This document shows, piece after piece, positions 6,937 through 28,320 of a stretch of DNA of 29,184 nucleotides (position 1 is its first letter; every line of letters begins with the position of its first letter). Where the stretch lies: IMG/VR virus record IMGVR_UViG_3300037515_000316, positions 1-29,184 of that record; one strand, written 5' to 3'. The position numbers were made by a program, and so were the translations under genes. The DNA is from a virus. Lineage: Duplodnaviria > Caudoviricetes. The notes under the pieces were generated by a model. The model worked only from the letters and a program-made list of their open reading frames with translations. It did no database searches and was not told where the DNA came from.

Positions 6937-6980
6937 TTATTCTTTTATCATTATTACTACTCATTATTTTTCAGAAAATA

Positions 6981-15312: not shown

Positions 15313-15413
15313 CAATTTTGTTATCGTAGATTTTTTAATTACTACCTCTATATATTTCTATATAGCTCAGACTATATCATAATCTTAATTATTATAAAAT
15401 AATTTAATTATTA

Positions 15414-19665: not shown

Positions 19666-20076
19666 TTATTTATTTATAAAAATTTGAGACCAATCAACTG
19701 TTACTTTATTTGCAACATCTGATTCAGCTATTACTATTTTCTTACCTTTTAAATGTTCACTTCTTGAACCACATAATAATTTCTCTGAAGGTTGAAAATT
19801 TATAATAGTTTTATTTTCATCTCGATATAGATACCCAATAGCATCTACTTTTGAGCATAAGATTGCAGACATTTTACCTGCTAAATCTAATCCTCTTTCA
19901 TTCATTTCTTCACCTTGTTGCTCTATAAGTTTGTCTTTTACATGACCTAGTATAATTAAAGTATCACATAATTCTTCTAATTCATTTAAGACAACTTGTA
20001 AAGCTCTTCTAGTAAATCTATAGCCAGCACCACTCGATAATTCTGTAACATCATCACCAATCCAATTTTTACCTTG
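19666..20076 (-). CDS. exon 2 of AAA ATPase (AAA_24 / Sak4-like)
   Basis: Begins QGKNW after AATG|CAAGGT. Contains GAGY, LIILGHVKD, DAIGYLYR and GSRSEHL. The spliced product is 255 aa. Confidence 0.85.
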   Translation of the reverse strand, partial: QGKNWIGDDVTELSSGAGYRFTRRALQVVLNELEELCDTLIILGHVKDKLIEQQGEEMNERGLDLAGKMSAILCSKVDAIGYLYRDENKTIINFQPSEKLLCGSRSEHLKGKKIVIAESDVANKVTVDWSQIFINK

Positions 20077-20239
20077 CATTATATTCTATAAACAACGTAA
20101 CCTGTTTATACGTTCTCTTATGAACTGCTGTATATTTCTATACAGATTAGACTATATCTTCATCCTTATTAGGATGTTCTCCTTTTCCATTACCATTAAC
20201 TTGTAATGTACTCCCCTTCGGGATAGTCGTTGAACTTTT

Positions 20240-20825: not shown

Positions 20826-20922
20826 TATTTTTTAATATTTATTAGTTATTTTGTCTTTAGGGTGTTCCAGCAATTAAAAGAATTATTTTATATAATTACT
20901 TATATAAAGCCCCTTTTATTTG

Positions 20923-21279
20923 AGGCGTGGATTTATACATCTTATTTGCAAGTGGTAATACAATTTCTTCTAAAGCAGTTACAGTATCTATTGCTATATA
21001 CTTATAAACATAATCTTTTTTAGCTTCATTTCCCTTAGCTATAGTTTCCATTAATTGTTTTAATACAACTATTGGTAATCTTTCTTTTTCTTTTGCTTCT
21101 AATATTATATTATATTTTAAAGCATCCACAAACTGTGAACCATTTTCTAAATCTATAATTAAACAATCTTCTAATTCTGCTACAACAGTAGTTTTACCCA
21201 TTTTAGGCTGACTAAATATAATCATACTTTTAGGATTAACTCTATTAGATTTTTGTTTTTCTTTTGGTAATTCTATCAT
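20923..21279 (-). CDS. exon 1 of AAA ATPase (AAA_24 / Sak4-like)
   Basis: Walker A SQPKMGKT, IIDLENGS and Walker B IAIDT. 119 codons to the splice site. Confidence 0.85.
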
Positions 21280-23462: not shown

Positions 23463-23788
23463 TTTTTTAAATTTTTATCAATATATCTATCATCCATATC
23501 TTTTCTAAATAAAAACATATATGATAAAAACATTGCATTACATAATAGATGTCCAACATGTGCTAATTTACTTTCTTTATCATTATCTTCACCTTCTAAA
23601 AAAGCATTTAAATGACGTTGTAAACTATCACAAATTTCTGTATATTTTAATCCTTTAGACCAATTCCATGAACTATATTTCTGTGCTCCAAACATAAGCA
23701 CCTGAACCATAGGCTCAAGTGCTTTGAATGAAACTAGTGACCATCTTAATTTTCCTTTATTATCTCTTGTTCCTATATTTTCAATCAT
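23459..23788 (-). CDS. dATP/dGTP diphosphohydrolase-like protein (DUF5664 type)
   Basis: GKLRWSLV, VLMFGAQKY...NW, SLQRHL and DKESKLAHVGH...NAMFL motifs. Confidence 0.85.
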   Translation of the reverse strand: MIENIGTRDNKGKLRWSLVSFKALEPMVQVLMFGAQKYSSWNWSKGLKYTEICDSLQRHLNAFLEGEDNDKESKLAHVGHLLCNAMFLSYMFLFRKDMDDRYIDKNLKK

Positions 23789-24618
23789 TTTTTCTAACTA
23801 CATTTTTTATATAATTATAAATTCTATTTAATCCTGTTATATCATCTGGTTTAGGTAATTCTTTAAAATAATTAACTGCACCATCAAAATATAAAGGACA
23901 GGTTTCTCCTCCACCACCTTCTCTTCCACCAATAATTTCTAGGAATCTAATATTATCTTTAAATGTAGTAATATCATATCCCATATATTCTCTTATTTCA
24001 TGTTTATAAGGACTAAATAATCCTAATATAACATCCGCATCTCTAAAAGTTAGTTTACAATCACCTAATCCATCTGCACTAGGTTTAAGCTTACTGGCTT
24101 TAAAGTTTTCAAGAGATTCTTGATTAGCGGCTTGTTGCTGAATTACAACAGGTATATATTTATACTTATTTCTAAGTCTAATTAAGTAATCTGATGATAA
24201 TTTTGTAATAGATTGATGTAATGAAAGTTTTTGACCATTTTCAGAATCTGATGATATTAAACCAATATGGTCTATAAATACCATTACATATTCTTCTGGG
24301 TCATTAGCTTCATAATAATCATCTATTTCAGTATCTTCACCATTTATACTAATTATTTTTTTATGTTGTACACCGTTGGCATTAGCATAATCCCTCATGA
24401 ATTTAAAAATTCCAAATGGGTTTCTAACATCATCGATGAACTCTACTATTTCTTCAATTTTATTGAAATAGGGTTTATATTTAGATATTAATTCTAAAGT
24501 TTGTTCTGTTAATATATTATCTTCTTTAGTACTTTTAAGGTCTTTAGGAGCTATTCTAAGACCTTCTTTTACATATAAGATATTAGAGAATGCTGATAGC
24601 ATTTTTTGCTCCTTACTC
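23781..24618 (-). CDS. dnaB: exon 3 of DnaB-like (SF4) replicative helicase
   Basis: Starts with the G of a split ATG codon, then SKEQKM. Walker B VFIDHIG, VVIQQQ, DADVILG and REG motifs. Confidence 0.88.
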
Positions 24619-24742
24619 CATTTTATTAACCTAAGCGAGTTTACCACTTAGTTCTATATATTACTATATAGTTTAGACTATATCTTCAATAACAGCTGTT
24701 ATTGCTGGGATTTCTTGGATATATTATATTCTAAATATTTTG

Positions 24743-24816
24743 TGGATATGATGAGAATCGAACTCACTTCACTACCCAACATTAAGTCGGGTCGCTTACC
24801 ATAAAGCTCCATACCC
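24743..24816 (-). ncRNA. tRNA-like cloverleaf (non-canonical; nominal anticodon TAA) embedded in helicase intron 2
   Basis: Acceptor GGGTATG/CATATCC, D arm GCTT-TATGGT-AAGC, anticodon arm ACCCGAC-TTAAT-GTTGGGT, T arm GTGAG-TTCGATT-CTCAT, discriminator A, no encoded CCA. Confidence 0.75.
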
Positions 24817-24927
24817 ATATTTAGTTTCAATATCTAGTCGTTCGACCTACTATAATCATTTAAATTATAGCTTGGTACGGGATTGTCCTATAAGGAGTTT
24901 CCCCGTTTAACCCAGTTAAGAGACAAG

Positions 24928-25665
24928 TTATAATTTGTATAACATTGAATTACAAATATAAGGTTCTATTAGTTTTCTAAAAGTTTCTTTTGAACTATTT
25001 TTTATATATAATCTATTTAAAGAATGTAAACTAGTATTTAAATTATACTTATCTTTCAAAAAATCTCTAAATTCATTTATATTTTTTTTTGTAAAAGAAC
25101 ATGTATGAATTTGATAAGCTGAAGTTCCTACTTTTGAACCATCATCCATATAATGAATAGCCATAGCAAGAGGTGTATAATATTTTTCTAGTAAATTTAT
25201 TGGTATTATTTTACCATTTTCTTTATAAAATTCATTATAAAAATAATTTAAATTTTTGTTAACTTTTAAATTAAATACAGTTGAACTATATATTTTATTA
25301 GTTATCTTATTAGGTGTTAATCTAACATAATCTTTAATATTTCCTAAATTAGGAAAATAAGATTTTTTATATTTAACATAATCTTTTTGTTTTAAAGAAT
25401 GTTGACATGTAAAAGTTGTACCTAAGTCATATTTTCTATTTTTTAAATTTCCGTCACCTAAAACACAACCAAAAATAACTTCTAATTGAATAGATGTTAA
25501 ATTATAAGGTATATGTTCTCTTAATGATTTCCTATTTAATTTATGAACTTTTAATCTATGATAATATATTACTTGTTGTGATACATTATATATATTTCCA
25601 ATTTCTGTGTCAGTTAATCCTTTATTAACTAATTCTTGTAATTCTTGTTTTTTGATACTAAACAT
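24928..25665 (-). CDS. LAGLIDADG homing endonuclease with N-terminal HTH, in L1 of helicase intron 2
   Basis: FGCVLGDGNL and AIHYMDDGS motifs, HTH-like GLTDTEIGNIYNVS. The ATG at 25665 follows the promoter. Confidence 0.88.
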   Translation of the reverse strand: MFSIKKQELQELVNKGLTDTEIGNIYNVSQQVIYYHRLKVHKLNRKSLREHIPYNLTSIQLEVIFGCVLGDGNLKNRKYDLGTTFTCQHSLKQKDYVKYKKSYFPNLGNIKDYVRLTPNKITNKIYSSTVFNLKVNKNLNYFYNEFYKENGKIIPINLLEKYYTPLAMAIHYMDDGSKVGTSAYQIHTCSFTKKNINEFRDFLKDKYNLNTSLHSLNRLYIKNSSKETFRKLIEPYICNSMLYKL

Positions 25666-25687
25666 ATTTATTTTTATTTGTATCCTA

Positions 25688-25719
25688 CAAAGGTACAAAA
25701 AATATATTTAATATCCAAA
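25688..25719 (-). promoter_or_regulatory. Bacteroidetes primary-sigma promoter for the intron 2 endonuclease
   Basis: TTTG (25719-25716), 20-nt spacer, TACCTTTG (25695-25688). Confidence 0.82.
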
Positions 25720-25738
25720 TTTTTGAGTACTTATTTTT

Positions 25739-25842
25739 ATCTCTAAAGTAAAATAGAAGATTTTTAAACGAACATTTAAATTATTATCTATTACTTGTTG
25801 AATAGTATTATACAAAAATAGCCAATCAGCTATTTGAGTTTT
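25739..25842 (-). CDS. dnaB: exon 2 (104 nt) of DnaB-like helicase, absent from the ORF track
   Basis: Translates KTQIADWLFLYNTIQQVIDNNLNVRLKIFYFTLE plus AT. Joins exon 1 to give Walker A ANSKIG|KT. The three exons total 1107 nt (368 aa). Confidence 0.9.
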
Positions 25843-25922
25843 CAATTTTGTTACTCTATACTAATTCTAGTACATGGTTATATCATTTCTGTATAACTCT
25901 ATATGTCACCATATAGTTCGGA

Positions 25923-26546
25923 TTATAAATAGTTAATTTTATAATGCATAGATGGAATTTTTAAAACATAAGGTTTAATTAAATTACATAATTTATATAA
26001 ATTTTCTTTATTAAATCGTATTCTATAACCATCATTACGTTTTATATAATTTAAATAACCGTTTATACCATATTGCGAAAAGCATAATAATAAGTTTTCT
26101 ATTGATTTTTTATCATAAGATATAGCTGTTATATCTCCATAATGATATTCATAGTTATTTTTCTTTTTATTAATACTTTTACAAAAACATCCATCATCCA
26201 TCCAATAAATTGCAAGAATTTCAGGTGTTATATTTTTAACCCATCGTTTATAAAATTTTCTTTTACCATTTTTATAAAATCTATTTCTAATAGATTCTAA
26301 TATATGATATCCAGTTGTATAAACTTTAATTAATTTTGGTATATTTTTACTTTTTTTTATTCCAATTTTACAATTAATATTTATATTATCTAATATTGAT
26401 TTTTTATATTCAATATAATCCATATGTCTTAAATGGTGAGCTATATCTAAATAAGCTCTTTTACTACCATTTTTTAGTTTAGGATTATGAATATTTCCAT
26501 CTCCAATAGTTAATCCTATTAATGTGTAATATCTATTTCTCTTCAT
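25923..26546 (-). CDS. LAGLIDADG homing endonuclease inside helicase intron 1
   Basis: LIGLTIGDGNI and LAIYWMDDG motifs. Confidence 0.88.
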   Translation of the reverse strand: MKRNRYYTLIGLTIGDGNIHNPKLKNGSKRAYLDIAHHLRHMDYIEYKKSILDNININCKIGIKKSKNIPKLIKVYTTGYHILESIRNRFYKNGKRKFYKRWVKNITPEILAIYWMDDGCFCKSINKKKNNYEYHYGDITAISYDKKSIENLLLCFSQYGINGYLNYIKRNDGYRIRFNKENLYKLCNLIKPYVLKIPSMHYKINYL

Positions 26547-26597
26547 ACTTACAATGTATTACTACTTTATTACTATTTATTTTACTATCTCATCAAC

Positions 26598-26900
26598 CTA
26601 AGAAAATATTGAATCAATCTGTTCACCTGTTTGTGAACAAAAGTTTCCATTACAATTACAAATAATATTTTTATTATATAATTTATCTTCTAATATACAT
26701 TTCTTAGGTTGTTCATTGTTAGTCTCTACACCGTTTTGTAAAATTATTTTAATCTTATTATATACTTGTTCTATAGAAGGAAGAGGTGCACAATCAGGAC
26801 TTTCTCCTTGACAACATCTATCTTTAGAACGAAGTAAACATTCTAATAAAATTAATTCTTTTTTATCAAGTGACGGCACGGGATTGTCTTTTTTATTCAT
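26598..26900 (-). CDS. Cys-rich 100-aa ORF overprinted on the intron 1 ribozyme core
   Basis: The ATG overlaps the stop of the upstream ORF. DNPVPS is encoded by Q, NGVETN by R, and the stop lies in the P8 3' strand. Translation is unproven. Confidence 0.5.
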   Translation of the reverse strand: MNKKDNPVPSLDKKELILLECLLRSKDRCCQGESPDCAPLPSIEQVYNKIKIILQNGVETNNEQPKKCILEDKLYNKNIICNCNGNFCSQTGEQIDSIFS

Positions 26901-27468
26901 TTATAAAAAAATTATTTACTCTAGTTAATTCATGTGTATTTAACCAATCTTTTGTTGATTTAATTTTAGTTTCCCAAGGTCTCCAGCAATGTCCATCATG
27001 AAAATAATCTTGTTTTAGTAAAATTTGTTTATAAAAATAACAAAATCTTTTTAATTTATTTTTATATTTACATTTGCCAGTTATTAATAATGGTTCAAAA
27101 AATTTTTCTTCTAAATTTAATTCTGTTATTTTAATTGTAGCAAAAGTTTCATATAAAAATCTTATTAATGATAATACTAAAGCATTCTTTATATTACAAT
27201 TATAAGCTTTAAATGTAAAAGAATTTTCTCCAATAACAATATCTTCTAATTTTAACATATCTGTAATGTAATTTAAATAAGAATCTCTATATTTAAAACT
27301 ACTTTCACAGTTTATATTATGTAATGTTATTTTAGATATTAATTTATTTTCATGAAATAAATCATTAAAACATATTTTTTCATTAAAATTTAAAATATTA
27401 CCATTTTTATAATATATATCATATTTAGTATTTCTTATAGTTCCTCCCCATTCTCTTTCTTTGTACAT
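26893..27468 (-). CDS. hypothetical protein (cargo in the intron 1 P5 loop)
   Basis: 191-aa ORF with no nuclease motif seen. Confidence 0.7.
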   Translation of the reverse strand: MYKEREWGGTIRNTKYDIYYKNGNILNFNEKICFNDLFHENKLISKITLHNINCESSFKYRDSYLNYITDMLKLEDIVIGENSFTFKAYNCNIKNALVLSLIRFLYETFATIKITELNLEEKFFEPLLITGKCKYKNKLKRFCYFYKQILLKQDYFHDGHCWRPWETKIKSTKDWLNTHELTRVNNFFINE

Positions 27469-27469
27469 A

Positions 27470-27769
27470 TCATAAATTTTTAATATACATTTTTAAATCA
27501 CCTAAATTAGGATAACCAACTCTTCTTTCAAAAGTATGTTTCATTTTAAAACCTAATTTTTTAAGATTGTTTTCTAATATATATTCACCTGGACTAACTA
27601 TTGTAAAAACTGCTGTTTGTCCATTTCCTGTTGTATAACCTACTTCAATATTTATTTCTTTTTCTTCTTTTAATTTCTTTAATGCTATTTCTATATGTTC
27701 TATAGGTGTTTCATTATCAATTCTACTTAATTGACATAATGCACAGCAATCTGTTGCAGTTTTAATCAT
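27470..27769 (-). CDS. hypothetical protein (cargo in the intron 1 P5 loop)
   Basis: 99-aa ORF with an A-rich initiation region. Contains CCALC and LKKLGF. Confidence 0.7.
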   Translation of the reverse strand: MIKTATDCCALCQLSRIDNETPIEHIEIALKKLKEEKEINIEVGYTTGNGQTAVFTIVSPGEYILENNLKKLGFKMKHTFERRVGYPNLGDLKMYIKNL

Positions 27770-27802
27770 TTTTTATATTTTTTAAAAGAGTTTCCCCGTT
27801 AA

Positions 27803-28243
27803 TTAATTAATCTTTTTATATTTTTCTTTTTCTTTATTTAAAATAAAATTTTCTTTCCAATTTTCACCTATATAATCATAATTAGTAAAAAATGTTGAAT
27901 GATATTGAAAAGTATCACTATATCCAGTAGGACATTCAATAGTTCCTATTAATACAAATCTTGTTTCTAATATATCTAATATTTTTTTATCAGTTACATG
28001 AACTCCAAATGTTAATTTTCTTGTATTATTTAAAAATTCTTCAATTCTATCTAAACCATCTTGGATACTTTTTTCATCACTTTTATTAAAACAATTTGAT
28101 ATAGTATGTAAATAACAATGTTTACAATTACCAATAGCATTACTATAATAAAATTGCATATAATCACTTACTTTTACTCGATATATTTCATTATTATCAA
28201 TATTTTTTATTTTTTCATCTTTTTTTATTTCTTTTATATTCAT
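27803..28243 (-). CDS. hypothetical protein (cargo between P2/P3 and P4 of intron 1)
   Basis: 146-aa ORF whose stop abuts the P element. Confidence 0.7.
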   Translation of the reverse strand: MNIKEIKKDEKIKNIDNNEIYRVKVSDYMQFYYSNAIGNCKHCYLHTISNCFNKSDEKSIQDGLDRIEEFLNNTRKLTFGVHVTDKKILDILETRFVLIGTIECPTGYSDTFQYHSTFFTNYDYIGENWKENFILNKEKEKYKKIN

Positions 28244-28320
28244 GTTATTAAAAATTAATTAATCCCTATTTCTAGGATTCTGAATTCAATTATATATTAC
28301 TATATAAAGGGGCAAAGTCT

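Follow-up and report, generated by a model that had tools for sequence, protein, structure and literature searches.

A tRNA-like, Non-decoding Cloverleaf at the P7.2 Tip of a Phage Group I Intron

Introduction

What is a fold that passes as a tRNA doing inside a ribozyme helix? The question is raised by a 29,184-base IMG/VR virus record (IMGVR_UViG_3300037515_000316; this whole stretch of DNA is called the window here), in which the replicative helicase gene of a crAss-like phage is interrupted by a group I intron, intron 2, that carries a tRNA-shaped module on a peripheral stem. The record has a completeness estimate of 29% and is AT-rich as judged by reading. Group I introns inside tRNA genes, such as those of cyanobacterial and plastid tRNA-Leu(UAA), tRNA-Ile, and tRNA-fMet, are the familiar combination; here, a fold passing the tRNA covariance model sits inside the ribozyme. 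A sequence-only reading of the window had singled out this element and knew of no tRNA inside a group I intron domain. Our literature searches agree: no tRNA-like fold inside a group I intron helix was found in open full text, and passages of a crAss-like phage genomics paper (PMC7886860) and of a review of bacterial group I introns (PMC3984707) gave the same null. Comparison with homologs indicates that the module is a tRNA-derived, non-decoding cloverleaf.

Results

A tRNA-Shaped Module on the Minus Strand

The only tRNA that ARAGORN calls in the window is tRNA-Leu(taa), on the minus strand at 24742-24816. The Rfam tRNA model RF00005 scores the element at 33.5 bits, where the gathering score is 29, and the E value in the record is 3.7e-7. 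Its parts, and the stem that carries it, are as follows.

24742..24816, minus strand: tRNA-shaped module, 75 nt (ARAGORN, RF00005, minimum-free-energy fold, pair counts)
24810-24816 and 24744-24750, minus strand: acceptor stem
24794-24807, minus strand: D arm
24774-24792, minus strand: 7-bp "anticodon" hairpin
24768-24773, minus strand: variable region
24751-24767, minus strand: T arm
24743, minus strand: A73; 24742, minus strand: C
24817..24824, minus strand: P7.2 5' strand, CTAAATAT, outer stem beneath the cloverleaf
24731..24738, minus strand: P7.2 3' strand, ATATTTAG, outer stem beneath the cloverleaf
24739..24743, minus strand: unpaired 3' linker ACAAA from the acceptor to the P7.2 3' strand, overlapping A73 and C of the module

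The acceptor (GGGTATG/CATATCC) has 7 bp, including G3:U70, and is followed by G8 and A9. The D stem (GCTT/AAGC, 4 bp) closes the loop TATGGT, and the T arm reads GTGAG-TTCGATT-CTCAT. The "anticodon" arm is able to pair 7 bp around TTAAT, with U following the nominal TAA anticodon on its 3' side, and the module ends with A and then CAAA, CCA not being encoded. The sequence-only reading had described this architecture from the letters, and its description stands: CTAAATAT (24824..24817) and ATATTTAG (24738..24731) pair perfectly as an 8-bp flanking stem; the 7-bp acceptor, the 4-bp D stem with GG, and the TTCGATT T arm are all present on the minus strand; and so are the departures from a decoder, namely G8, the 7-bp arm around TTAAT, the lack of a purine 3' of TAA, and the lack of CCA. 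It had also proposed ARAGORN, an Infernal-type scan, and covariation among homologs as checks, and all three (the last described below) came out in favor of the cloverleaf. At minimum free energy, the 94-nt piece adopts exactly this cloverleaf, seated on the 8-bp stem, at -29 kcal/mol (z -3.74); none of 200 shuffled sequences folds as well.

The transfer-messenger RNA (tmRNA) model RF00023 reaches 22.9 bits against a gathering score of 47, aligns with the acceptor and T arm only, and took the place under clan competition. No tmRNA is called by ARAGORN in the window, where no tag reading frame is present, and no Y RNA family is reported at E ≤ 10 in the Rfam scan. A whole-window Rfam scan at gathering scores reported nothing, which counts against the observation; narrower scans were required because a 771-nt open reading frame (ORF) splits the intron and because the tRNA model belongs to the same clan as the tmRNA model and competes with it.

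The Host Is a Group I Intron of the Helicase Gene

The helicase product is 42%-50% identical to Crassvirales records by tblastn, including Cellulophaga phage phi14:2 and crAss-like phage cr108_1, and most of the listed records label these matches as replicative DNA helicase. With the uninterrupted cr108_1 helicase as the tblastn query, the window gene falls into three pieces, with residues 1-56 matching 28485-28318, ∼56-90 matching 25842-25740, and 92-368 matching 24611-23799. Intron 2 separates the second piece from the third.

25739..25842, minus strand: helicase exon 2 (KTQIADW...FYFTLE; the final two bases start a Met codon; tblastn)
24619..25738, minus strand: group I intron 2 of the replicative helicase, 1120 nt
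23781..24618, minus strand: helicase exon 3 (tblastn, 42%-50% identity to replicative DNA helicase genes)
24928..25698, minus strand: LAGLIDADG homing endonuclease ORF (Pfam PF03161, E 9.7e-30; PHROG 11023)
24919..24924, minus strand: internal guide sequence GTCTCT, pairing with exon AGAGAT (25744..25739), with G.U at the splice site
24846..24915, minus strand: ribozyme core P3 (5' strand), J3/4, P4, P5, P6, and P6a (RF00028 alignment)
24835..24839, minus strand: P7 5' strand GACTA, partner TAGTC at 24676-24680 (RF00028 alignment)
24830..24834, minus strand: P7.1 5' strand GATAT, pairing with ATATC at 24718-24722
24718..24722, minus strand: P7.1 3' strand ATATC (family pairing)
24705-24709, minus strand: P3' (CCCAG), and 24687-24704, P8 hairpin (RF00028 alignment)
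24676-24686, minus strand: J8/7 and P7 3' strand AAGATATAGTC, and 24654-24671, P9 with a GTAA loop (RF00028 alignment)

The 5' splice site is GAGAT|AAAAAT, after 25739, and the 3' splice site is AAAATG|GAGTAAGG, after 24619, so placed that G at 24619 is the final intron base. Joining 25842..25739 to 24618..23781 gives ...KIFYFTLEMSKEQKMLSAF..., with the exon 2/exon 3 junction reading ...FYFTLEMSKEQKMLSAF...; the spliced junction agrees with the uninterrupted homolog L010 (L numbers are our labels for loci and X numbers for sequencing runs), FYFTLEMSKEQK is also present in L025, and the reading frame is restored exactly. Among the sequencing runs, which were compared through contigs only, a contig of X3 runs from 24618 directly to 25739, omitting exactly 1120 bases. 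We presume the intron to be functional because the helicase exons are intact and removal of 24619-25738 gives a junction like that of L010. The exon ends in a U that stands opposite a G of the guide sequence, and the intron itself ends in G, both as expected for group I splicing. Because exon AGAGAT pairs with the guide sequence at 24924..24919, the LAGLIDADG ORF is placed by this predicted pairing in the loop of P1. A contig of X13 links 24926 to 25731 with 7 other letters between and thus represents a relative without the ORF.

With the ORF excluded, the Rfam group I intron model RF00028 (Intron_gpI) matches 24654-24940 on the minus strand (45.3 bits, E 1.3e-10, model positions 27-253). This score is below the gathering score of 50 bits, and the match is cut at its 5' end because the 5' strand of P1 lies ∼800 nt upstream, past the ORF; sister introns sharing the core motifs score 51-83 bits. 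P3, P4, P5, P6, P7, P3', P8, J8/7, P7', and P9 are all present in the alignment, J8/7 and P7 being the parts that make up the G-binding site of such introns. The core 19-mer GGACAATCCCGTACCAAGC is common to five other introns in seven loci, and a 37-nt J8/7-P7 stretch is 94.6% identical to Staphylococcus phage introns, with 10 of 30 matching records annotating Intron_gpI. P7 and P3' are separated by two additional helices, P7.1 and P7.2, at the location given for these peripheral elements of subgroup IA introns (PMC3984707). The intron thus appears td-like and of subgroup IA type, the finer IA2 label being judged by likeness to td-type introns.

The Module Forms the Tip of P7.2

The RF00005 match is nested within the RF00028 match: between the P7 5' strand (GACUA) and P3', the alignment has an insert that spans GAUAUUGAAA, the cloverleaf, and AUAUCCAAG. 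The sequence-only reading had placed the element between these two strands of helicase intron 2, which the RF00028 alignment bears out, and the site can now be refined to the tip of P7.2. Sister introns were gathered by core motifs, and 27 distinct members of the family were compared for P7.1 and P7.2. The six bases that follow GACUA pair with the six that follow a conserved AAUAUAAU or ACAUAA, forming P7.1; five of five pairs are present in 20 introns and four of five in the other 7, and because the 5' strand takes 14 different forms, the covariation is good. Enclosed by P7.1 and following UGAA is P7.2, whose tip is the window cloverleaf.

P7.2 is 10-26 nt long in 11 of the 27 introns, several of which have GNRA-type loops, and 68-241 nt long in the other 16, whose larger inserts are unrelated to each other in sequence. 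The members with a short P7.2 match RF00028 over its full length, at 76-83 bits. Contigs of runs X3, X4, X6, and X13 link ∼24733 to ∼24822 with 2-9 letters, or 33, between. These joints (likeness 80, sides of 18-27 letters) are of a kind that often comes from other organisms, and we read them as probable sister introns rather than variants of the window phage. A tree of 12 intron cores supports the helicase-intron clade (95/91) but no grouping within it, so that one gain of the module and several would look alike on this tree.

Some further features of the family were noted. In L053, L052/L029, and L239-L261, the P7.2 tips carry many unrelated structured inserts of 68-241 nt, reminiscent of ribosomal RNA expansion segments, and the L053 and L029 introns occupy the same two helicase sites as the introns with tRNA-like tips. 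L063 has two tandem group I introns of the family, at 472-706 and 718-962, 11 nt apart (RF00028 51.3 and 24.7 bits).

Close Homologs Keep the Fold

Among 28 related helicase loci, ARAGORN calls a "tRNA-Thr(tgt)" inside the helicase gene of L028. Its host is a 373-nt, ORF-free intron at a different helicase site (residue 288/289), and the core of this intron is 78% identical to that of the window. Here, too, the element forms the tip of P7.2, where a 9-bp stem (CTAAATAAT/ATTATTTAG) carries it and ACA takes the place of the linker. A third copy, in L032, is free-standing: it lies 10 nt downstream of tRNA-Val, between an unnamed ORF and the primase gene, and was found by motif scan. The L032 phage is related to the window phage (helicase 63% identical), and its copy scores 32.8 bits with RF00005, yet is not called by ARAGORN. 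RF00005 gives no match on the L028 record at E ≤ 1, and the corresponding position of the window, upstream of its primase gene, has no free-standing gene for the module.

A covariance model built from these three modules (R1) gives ∼100 bits for the window, L028, and L032 only, and ≤34 bits for everything else in 56 sources. In the three-row alignment, 69 of 69 pair cells hold standard pairs, and five pairs have exchanged both of their bases, namely two acceptor pairs, two T-stem pairs, and one pair of the "anticodon" stem; control structures slid by one to three columns have standard pairs in 31%-44% of cells. With three rows, this is good but thin evidence, and it suggests that the fold is maintained by compensatory change. 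Conservation is nearly complete in the D arm, in the variable region (AGUGAA), and in the T loop; the stems and "anticodon" loop vary.

Searches for more copies covered several collections. Blastn of 24600-24960 against GenBank phages returned the 37-nt core match to Staphylococcus phages only and no homolog of the module. Of the 10 stretches picked out in viral contigs by the variable-region and T-arm motif, only L032 and L040 are true, the latter being the L028 contig. The metagenome contigs returned the L028 contig again and nothing further, and the genome contigs gave 0. Since these scans of viral, metagenome, and genome contigs added no copy, the close family is limited to three sequences. 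A D-arm motif scan of viral contigs gave three stretches, among them L111, which was rejected as a chance match within coding sequence.

Departures from a Decoding tRNA

U8, A14, and A21 are canonical bases of the tRNA tertiary core. All three close homologs have G8 and U14 instead and lack an equivalent of A21, each having U as the final base of the D loop. Nor do the homologs keep a seven-base anticodon loop with U33 and a purine at 37: the window can be read as CUUAAUG, with U at position 37 and with C32 and G38 able to pair, and because this Watson-Crick pair is conserved, the "anticodon" arm is a 7-bp hairpin. The hairpin loop is 5 nt in the window (UUAAU) and L028 (UUGUU) and 4 nt in L032 (AGAU), so read as UAA, UGU, and no anticodon, respectively, and the RF00005 alignment leaves the anticodon loop unaligned. 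The variable region of 6-7 nt and total length of 75 nt do not fit a bacterial class II tRNA-Leu, and relatives L080-L082 carry an ordinary 83-nt tRNA-Leu(taa). The elbow, on the other hand, is that of a tRNA, with D loop UAUGGU, T loop UUCGAUU, and the G53:C61 closing pair. G3:U70 and A73 occur together in the window and L032, and L028 has G3:C70.

Other tRNA-like Tips and Free-Standing Relatives

Two further introns of the family have a tRNA-like P7.2 tip. L015 is orthologous to the window intron, at the same site and with a LAGLIDADG-type ORF that likewise ends just before the guide sequence. Its tip is a different cloverleaf (RF00005 33.5 bits, nested in an RF00028 match of 44.9 bits), with no GG in the D loop and with T loop UGAAAAU; because R1 gives it 6.5 bits, common ancestry with the window module is not demonstrable. 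The L205 intron lies in another gene, and the equivalent of the P7.2 5' strand is CTAAAATAA. RF00005 (33.7 bits) recognizes an acceptor, D arm, and T arm in its P7.2, with 73 nt replacing the anticodon arm; the minimum-free-energy fold of this 149-nt P7.2 gives no clean cloverleaf, so that its likeness to tRNA comes from RF00005 alone. In both L015 and L205, the acceptor stem is continuous with the P7.2 helix, with no unpaired discriminator. L250 scores 24.3 bits with RF00005, below threshold, and the remaining introns with enlarged P7.2 have no tRNA likeness by this model.

From 7 of 64 IMG/VR parts, 122 loci were sampled without selection beyond the J8/7 motif, and these provided 126 intron instances. 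ARAGORN calls no tRNA in them, with the window and L028 detected as controls, and R1 picks out L205 only. Since this sample gave none by ARAGORN and several carriers are known, tRNA-like tips appear to be rare overall yet recurrent in the intron family.

Related phages also have free-standing tRNA-like genes with aberrant anticodon arms, in L077, L079, L083, L088, and L104 (∼1100-1480), L012 (6243-6439), and L019 (6862-6934). The first five lie directly upstream of the primase gene. ARAGORN assigns "anticodons" of two or four bases to such genes, the L088 form is 65 nt long and nearly loopless, and most of those shown end N-C-A/U-A past the acceptor stem. At L025 1303-1713, on a contig of a related phage, ARAGORN calls a tmRNA (tag peptide GKTIVFVPAAKLALVA, then stop) upstream of an uninterrupted helicase gene. 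L029 9461-9563 is a 103-nt tRNA match (RF00005 42 bits) in which 23 nt replace part of the anticodon loop and the variable region is long.

Discussion

The account that we prefer, and that we regard as evenly poised between right and wrong, is that the module is an optional, tRNA-derived expansion of the insertion-tolerant P7.2 loop. The cloverleaf would act as a self-closing cap, or expansion segment, with its acceptor stem stacked on the 8-bp P7.2 stem, so that the ribozyme core could fold and splice as in the relatives with a short hairpin. The module would take no part in catalysis or decoding and would be lost along with the intron at splicing. Its probable origin is a copying event in which an intron recombined, at the DNA level, with a free-standing phage tRNA-like gene, in either direction. 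A required role in splicing is unlikely because 11 of the 27 family members have just a 10-26-nt hairpin at this place. A decoy for anticodon nucleases, which the sequence-only reading had put forward along with RNase P/RNase Z processing and docking of a tRNA-binding cofactor, is also unlikely because the "anticodon" loop is the least conserved part (UUAAU, UUGUU, AGAU, or a 73-nt replacement).

Several observations weigh against a merely tolerated expansion. Across the three homologs, conservation is higher in the unpaired parts of the elbow (the D loop with its GG, the variable region AGUGAA, and UUCGA of the T loop) than in the stems, which hints at selection on tRNA-like three-dimensional shape beyond closure of a hairpin. 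Window and L028 are 77% identical in the module and 78% in the ribozyme core, with compensation; the module thus diverges at about the rate of the core and looks constrained in place. The free-standing copy suggests a use for the RNA of its own. tRNA-like modules occur at this tip in at least four introns (window, L028, L015, and L205), with a weaker case in L250, and four to five tRNA-like tips among the 16 enlarged P7.2 regions appear to be more than we expected for random cargo. Finally, the module is covered by contigs of run X1, the likely source, only.

These points speak for keeping functional readings in view. In one that we consider unlikely, the ribozyme would have recruited a working tRNA mimic, whose top half (acceptor, D arm, T arm, and elbow) would be selected for tRNA-like recognition, either for release by RNase P and RNase Z or as a site gripped by a tRNA-binding protein that serves as splicing cofactor. 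The module recurs in at least four related introns, and its "anticodon" part is free to vary.

The version with release treats the module as an intron-hosted tRNA-like RNA and seems to us doubtful. During or after splicing, the cargo would be excised by RNase P, which would cut at 24816 to form the 5' end, together with RNase Z or exonucleases, which would form the 3' end after A 24743, giving the same small RNA as the free-standing gene of the related phage; the intron would be the vehicle of its expression and mobility. A free-standing homolog does adjoin a tRNA gene and scores ∼100 bits with R1 and 32.8 bits with RF00005. The acceptor/T-arm half and the elbow loops are conserved, and unpaired A-C-A(-A-A) follows the acceptor in the window and L028, and the free-standing tRNA-like genes of relatives end similarly, in N-C-A/U-A. 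A cut in a terminal loop would leave the ribozyme halves joined by P3, P7, P7.1, and P7.2. However, the 5' leader is wholly paired in the 8-9-bp stem, and excision is less likely in L015 and L205 because the acceptor there runs into P7.2 without an unpaired discriminator.

Peripheral domains such as P5abc and P9.1-P9.2 of other group I introns provide the likeness for a structural clamp, a reading that we hold to be distinctly doubtful. The module would be an L-shaped domain whose elbow or hairpin loop docks on the ribozyme and stabilizes its active fold. Its fold is kept through compensatory change, its elbow loops are conserved, and tRNA-like shapes recur at the same tip. The hairpin loops are also complementary, by eye, to the tail before the last intron G, UUAAU to GUUAAUAAAAUG in the window (24774-24792 versus 24619-24630) and UUGUU to GAUAACAAAUUG in L028 (6781-6799 versus 6941-6952). 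P7.1-P7.2 are, moreover, known peripheral elements of subgroup IA (PMC3984707). Against a clamp, 11 of the 27 relatives do without any extension, and the other 11-12 large inserts share neither sequence nor shape with the module. The loop-tail complementarity is not seen in L015 or L205, and because it is short (four to five bases), AU-rich, and confined to two sequences, it is explicable by chance. Two bases of the window intron tail depart from the consensus of the family.

It is improbable that the module is a dock for a host or phage protein that binds tRNA, be it an aminoacyl-tRNA synthetase, a modification enzyme, or EF-Tu, and that would assist splicing as a cofactor or chaperone. Precedents for such help in group I splicing are mitochondrial tyrosyl-tRNA synthetase (TyrRS; CYT-18) and leucyl-tRNA synthetase (LeuRS). 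The acceptor, T arm, and elbow that a protein of this kind could grip are conserved, and G3:U70 with A73, the alanine identity set, is found in the window and L032. However, L028 has G3:C70, the module has no free 3' end, and sister introns do without such a site.

It is very improbable that the intron harbors a true tRNA-Leu(UAA) gene whose product decodes. The ARAGORN call of tRNA-Leu(taa) and the RF00005 score above gathering speak for it, and a UUA reader would plausibly be useful in an AT-rich window, but comparison largely refutes it: the long variable arm of class II is missing, G8, U14, U37, and the paired C32:G38 are at odds with decoding, the anticodon loop is left out of the RF00005 alignment, homologs read "UGU" (L028) or have a 4-nt loop (L032), and relatives have a normal 83-nt tRNA-Leu(taa). 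Chance resemblance of an AT-rich hairpin region to tRNA, to which the 4.5-bit excess of the RF00005 score over the cut-off, the empty default Rfam scan, and the lack of an RF00005 match at E ≤ 1 on the L028 record might point, is refuted by the E value of 3.7e-7, by 0 of 200 shuffles folding as well, by the five pairs changed on both sides among homologs, and by the canonical T loop, G53:C61 pair, and D-loop GG, and its probability is negligible.

Several known systems share features with the window intron. In described subgroup IA introns such as those of T4 td and Twort, P7.2 is a short hairpin. The introns of T4 td, Twort orf142, and Staphylococcus phage K have the same core as the window intron, with J3/4-P4 TAAACGGGGAA and J8/7-P7 AAGATATAGTC, and resemble it further in the extra helices between P7 and P3', the homing endonuclease ORF in a loop, and a host gene of DNA metabolism; unlike them, the window P7.2 bears a 75-nt cloverleaf that scores as a tRNA. 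Introns inside tRNA genes also put a tRNA fold and a ribozyme on one transcript, and the nominal anticodon here, as in tRNA-Leu(UAA), is UAA, but the nesting is reversed. The match to the tRNA-Leu(UAA) introns is a coincidence because UAA is not conserved in the homologs. The twin-ribozyme intron of Didymium carries GIR1, a catalytic domain that processes the endonuclease mRNA, together with the endonuclease gene in P2 of GIR2. It likewise places a second self-folding RNA domain in a peripheral loop beside a homing endonuclease gene; here, in contrast, the fold is tRNA-like, and L028 carries it without an endonuclease gene.

tRNA-like modules also occur stem-closed or as part of longer RNAs, namely the bacterial Y RNA YrlA, the tRNA-like domain of tmRNA, plant-virus 3' tRNA-like structures, plant mitochondrial t-elements, and mascRNA. 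With these, the window module shares mimicry of the acceptor, T arm, and D arm with a non-functional or missing anticodon arm, and in YrlA, the 5' and 3' ends are likewise closed by a helix. Unlike the window module, none of this group sits in a ribozyme, and the tmRNA gathering score of 47 is not reached here. CYT-18-dependent introns also link group I splicing with tRNA mimicry; there, the core itself mimics tRNA in three dimensions, and there is no cloverleaf (PMC4275181).

If the module is an expansion segment only, it shows that the peripheral loop of a ribozyme can adopt ready-made, self-folding RNA modules, and it warns annotators that tRNA finders will call false tRNA-Leu and tRNA-Thr genes in the introns of phages. 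Should it instead undergo processing or binding in the manner of a tRNA, no earlier case of a tRNA mimic hosted by a phage intron is known to us, and the module would offer a simple system for studying how tRNA-recognizing enzymes deal with a tRNA shape within a larger RNA.

Additional Features of the Window

The genes around the intron-bearing helicase region are on the minus strand, and the neighbors are compatible with a phage replication module; all ORFs used are open under table 11. The helicase gene has a second break of ∼2.5 kb, at 25843-28320 on the minus strand, inside the Walker A motif (SANSKIG|KT). This insert has five ORFs, including a second LAGLIDADG gene at 25923-26546. It also contains a P4-like TTAACGGGGAA at 27792-27802, and its end, ...GTAACAAAATTG|, resembles the intron family. 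Eighteen of 28 related loci share this Walker A split, their halves lying 1.7-3 kb apart; 4 loci are uninterrupted, and 6 are without upstream DNA.

A gene for a Sak4-like annealing protein is also in two pieces, at 20896-21279 and 19666-20079 on the minus strand. The J8/7-P7 motif AAGATATAGTC recurs within this split gene, at 20150-20160, and because of it, we propose that the interruption is probably a third group I intron of the window. A copy of the motif with one mismatch lies at 15370-15380.

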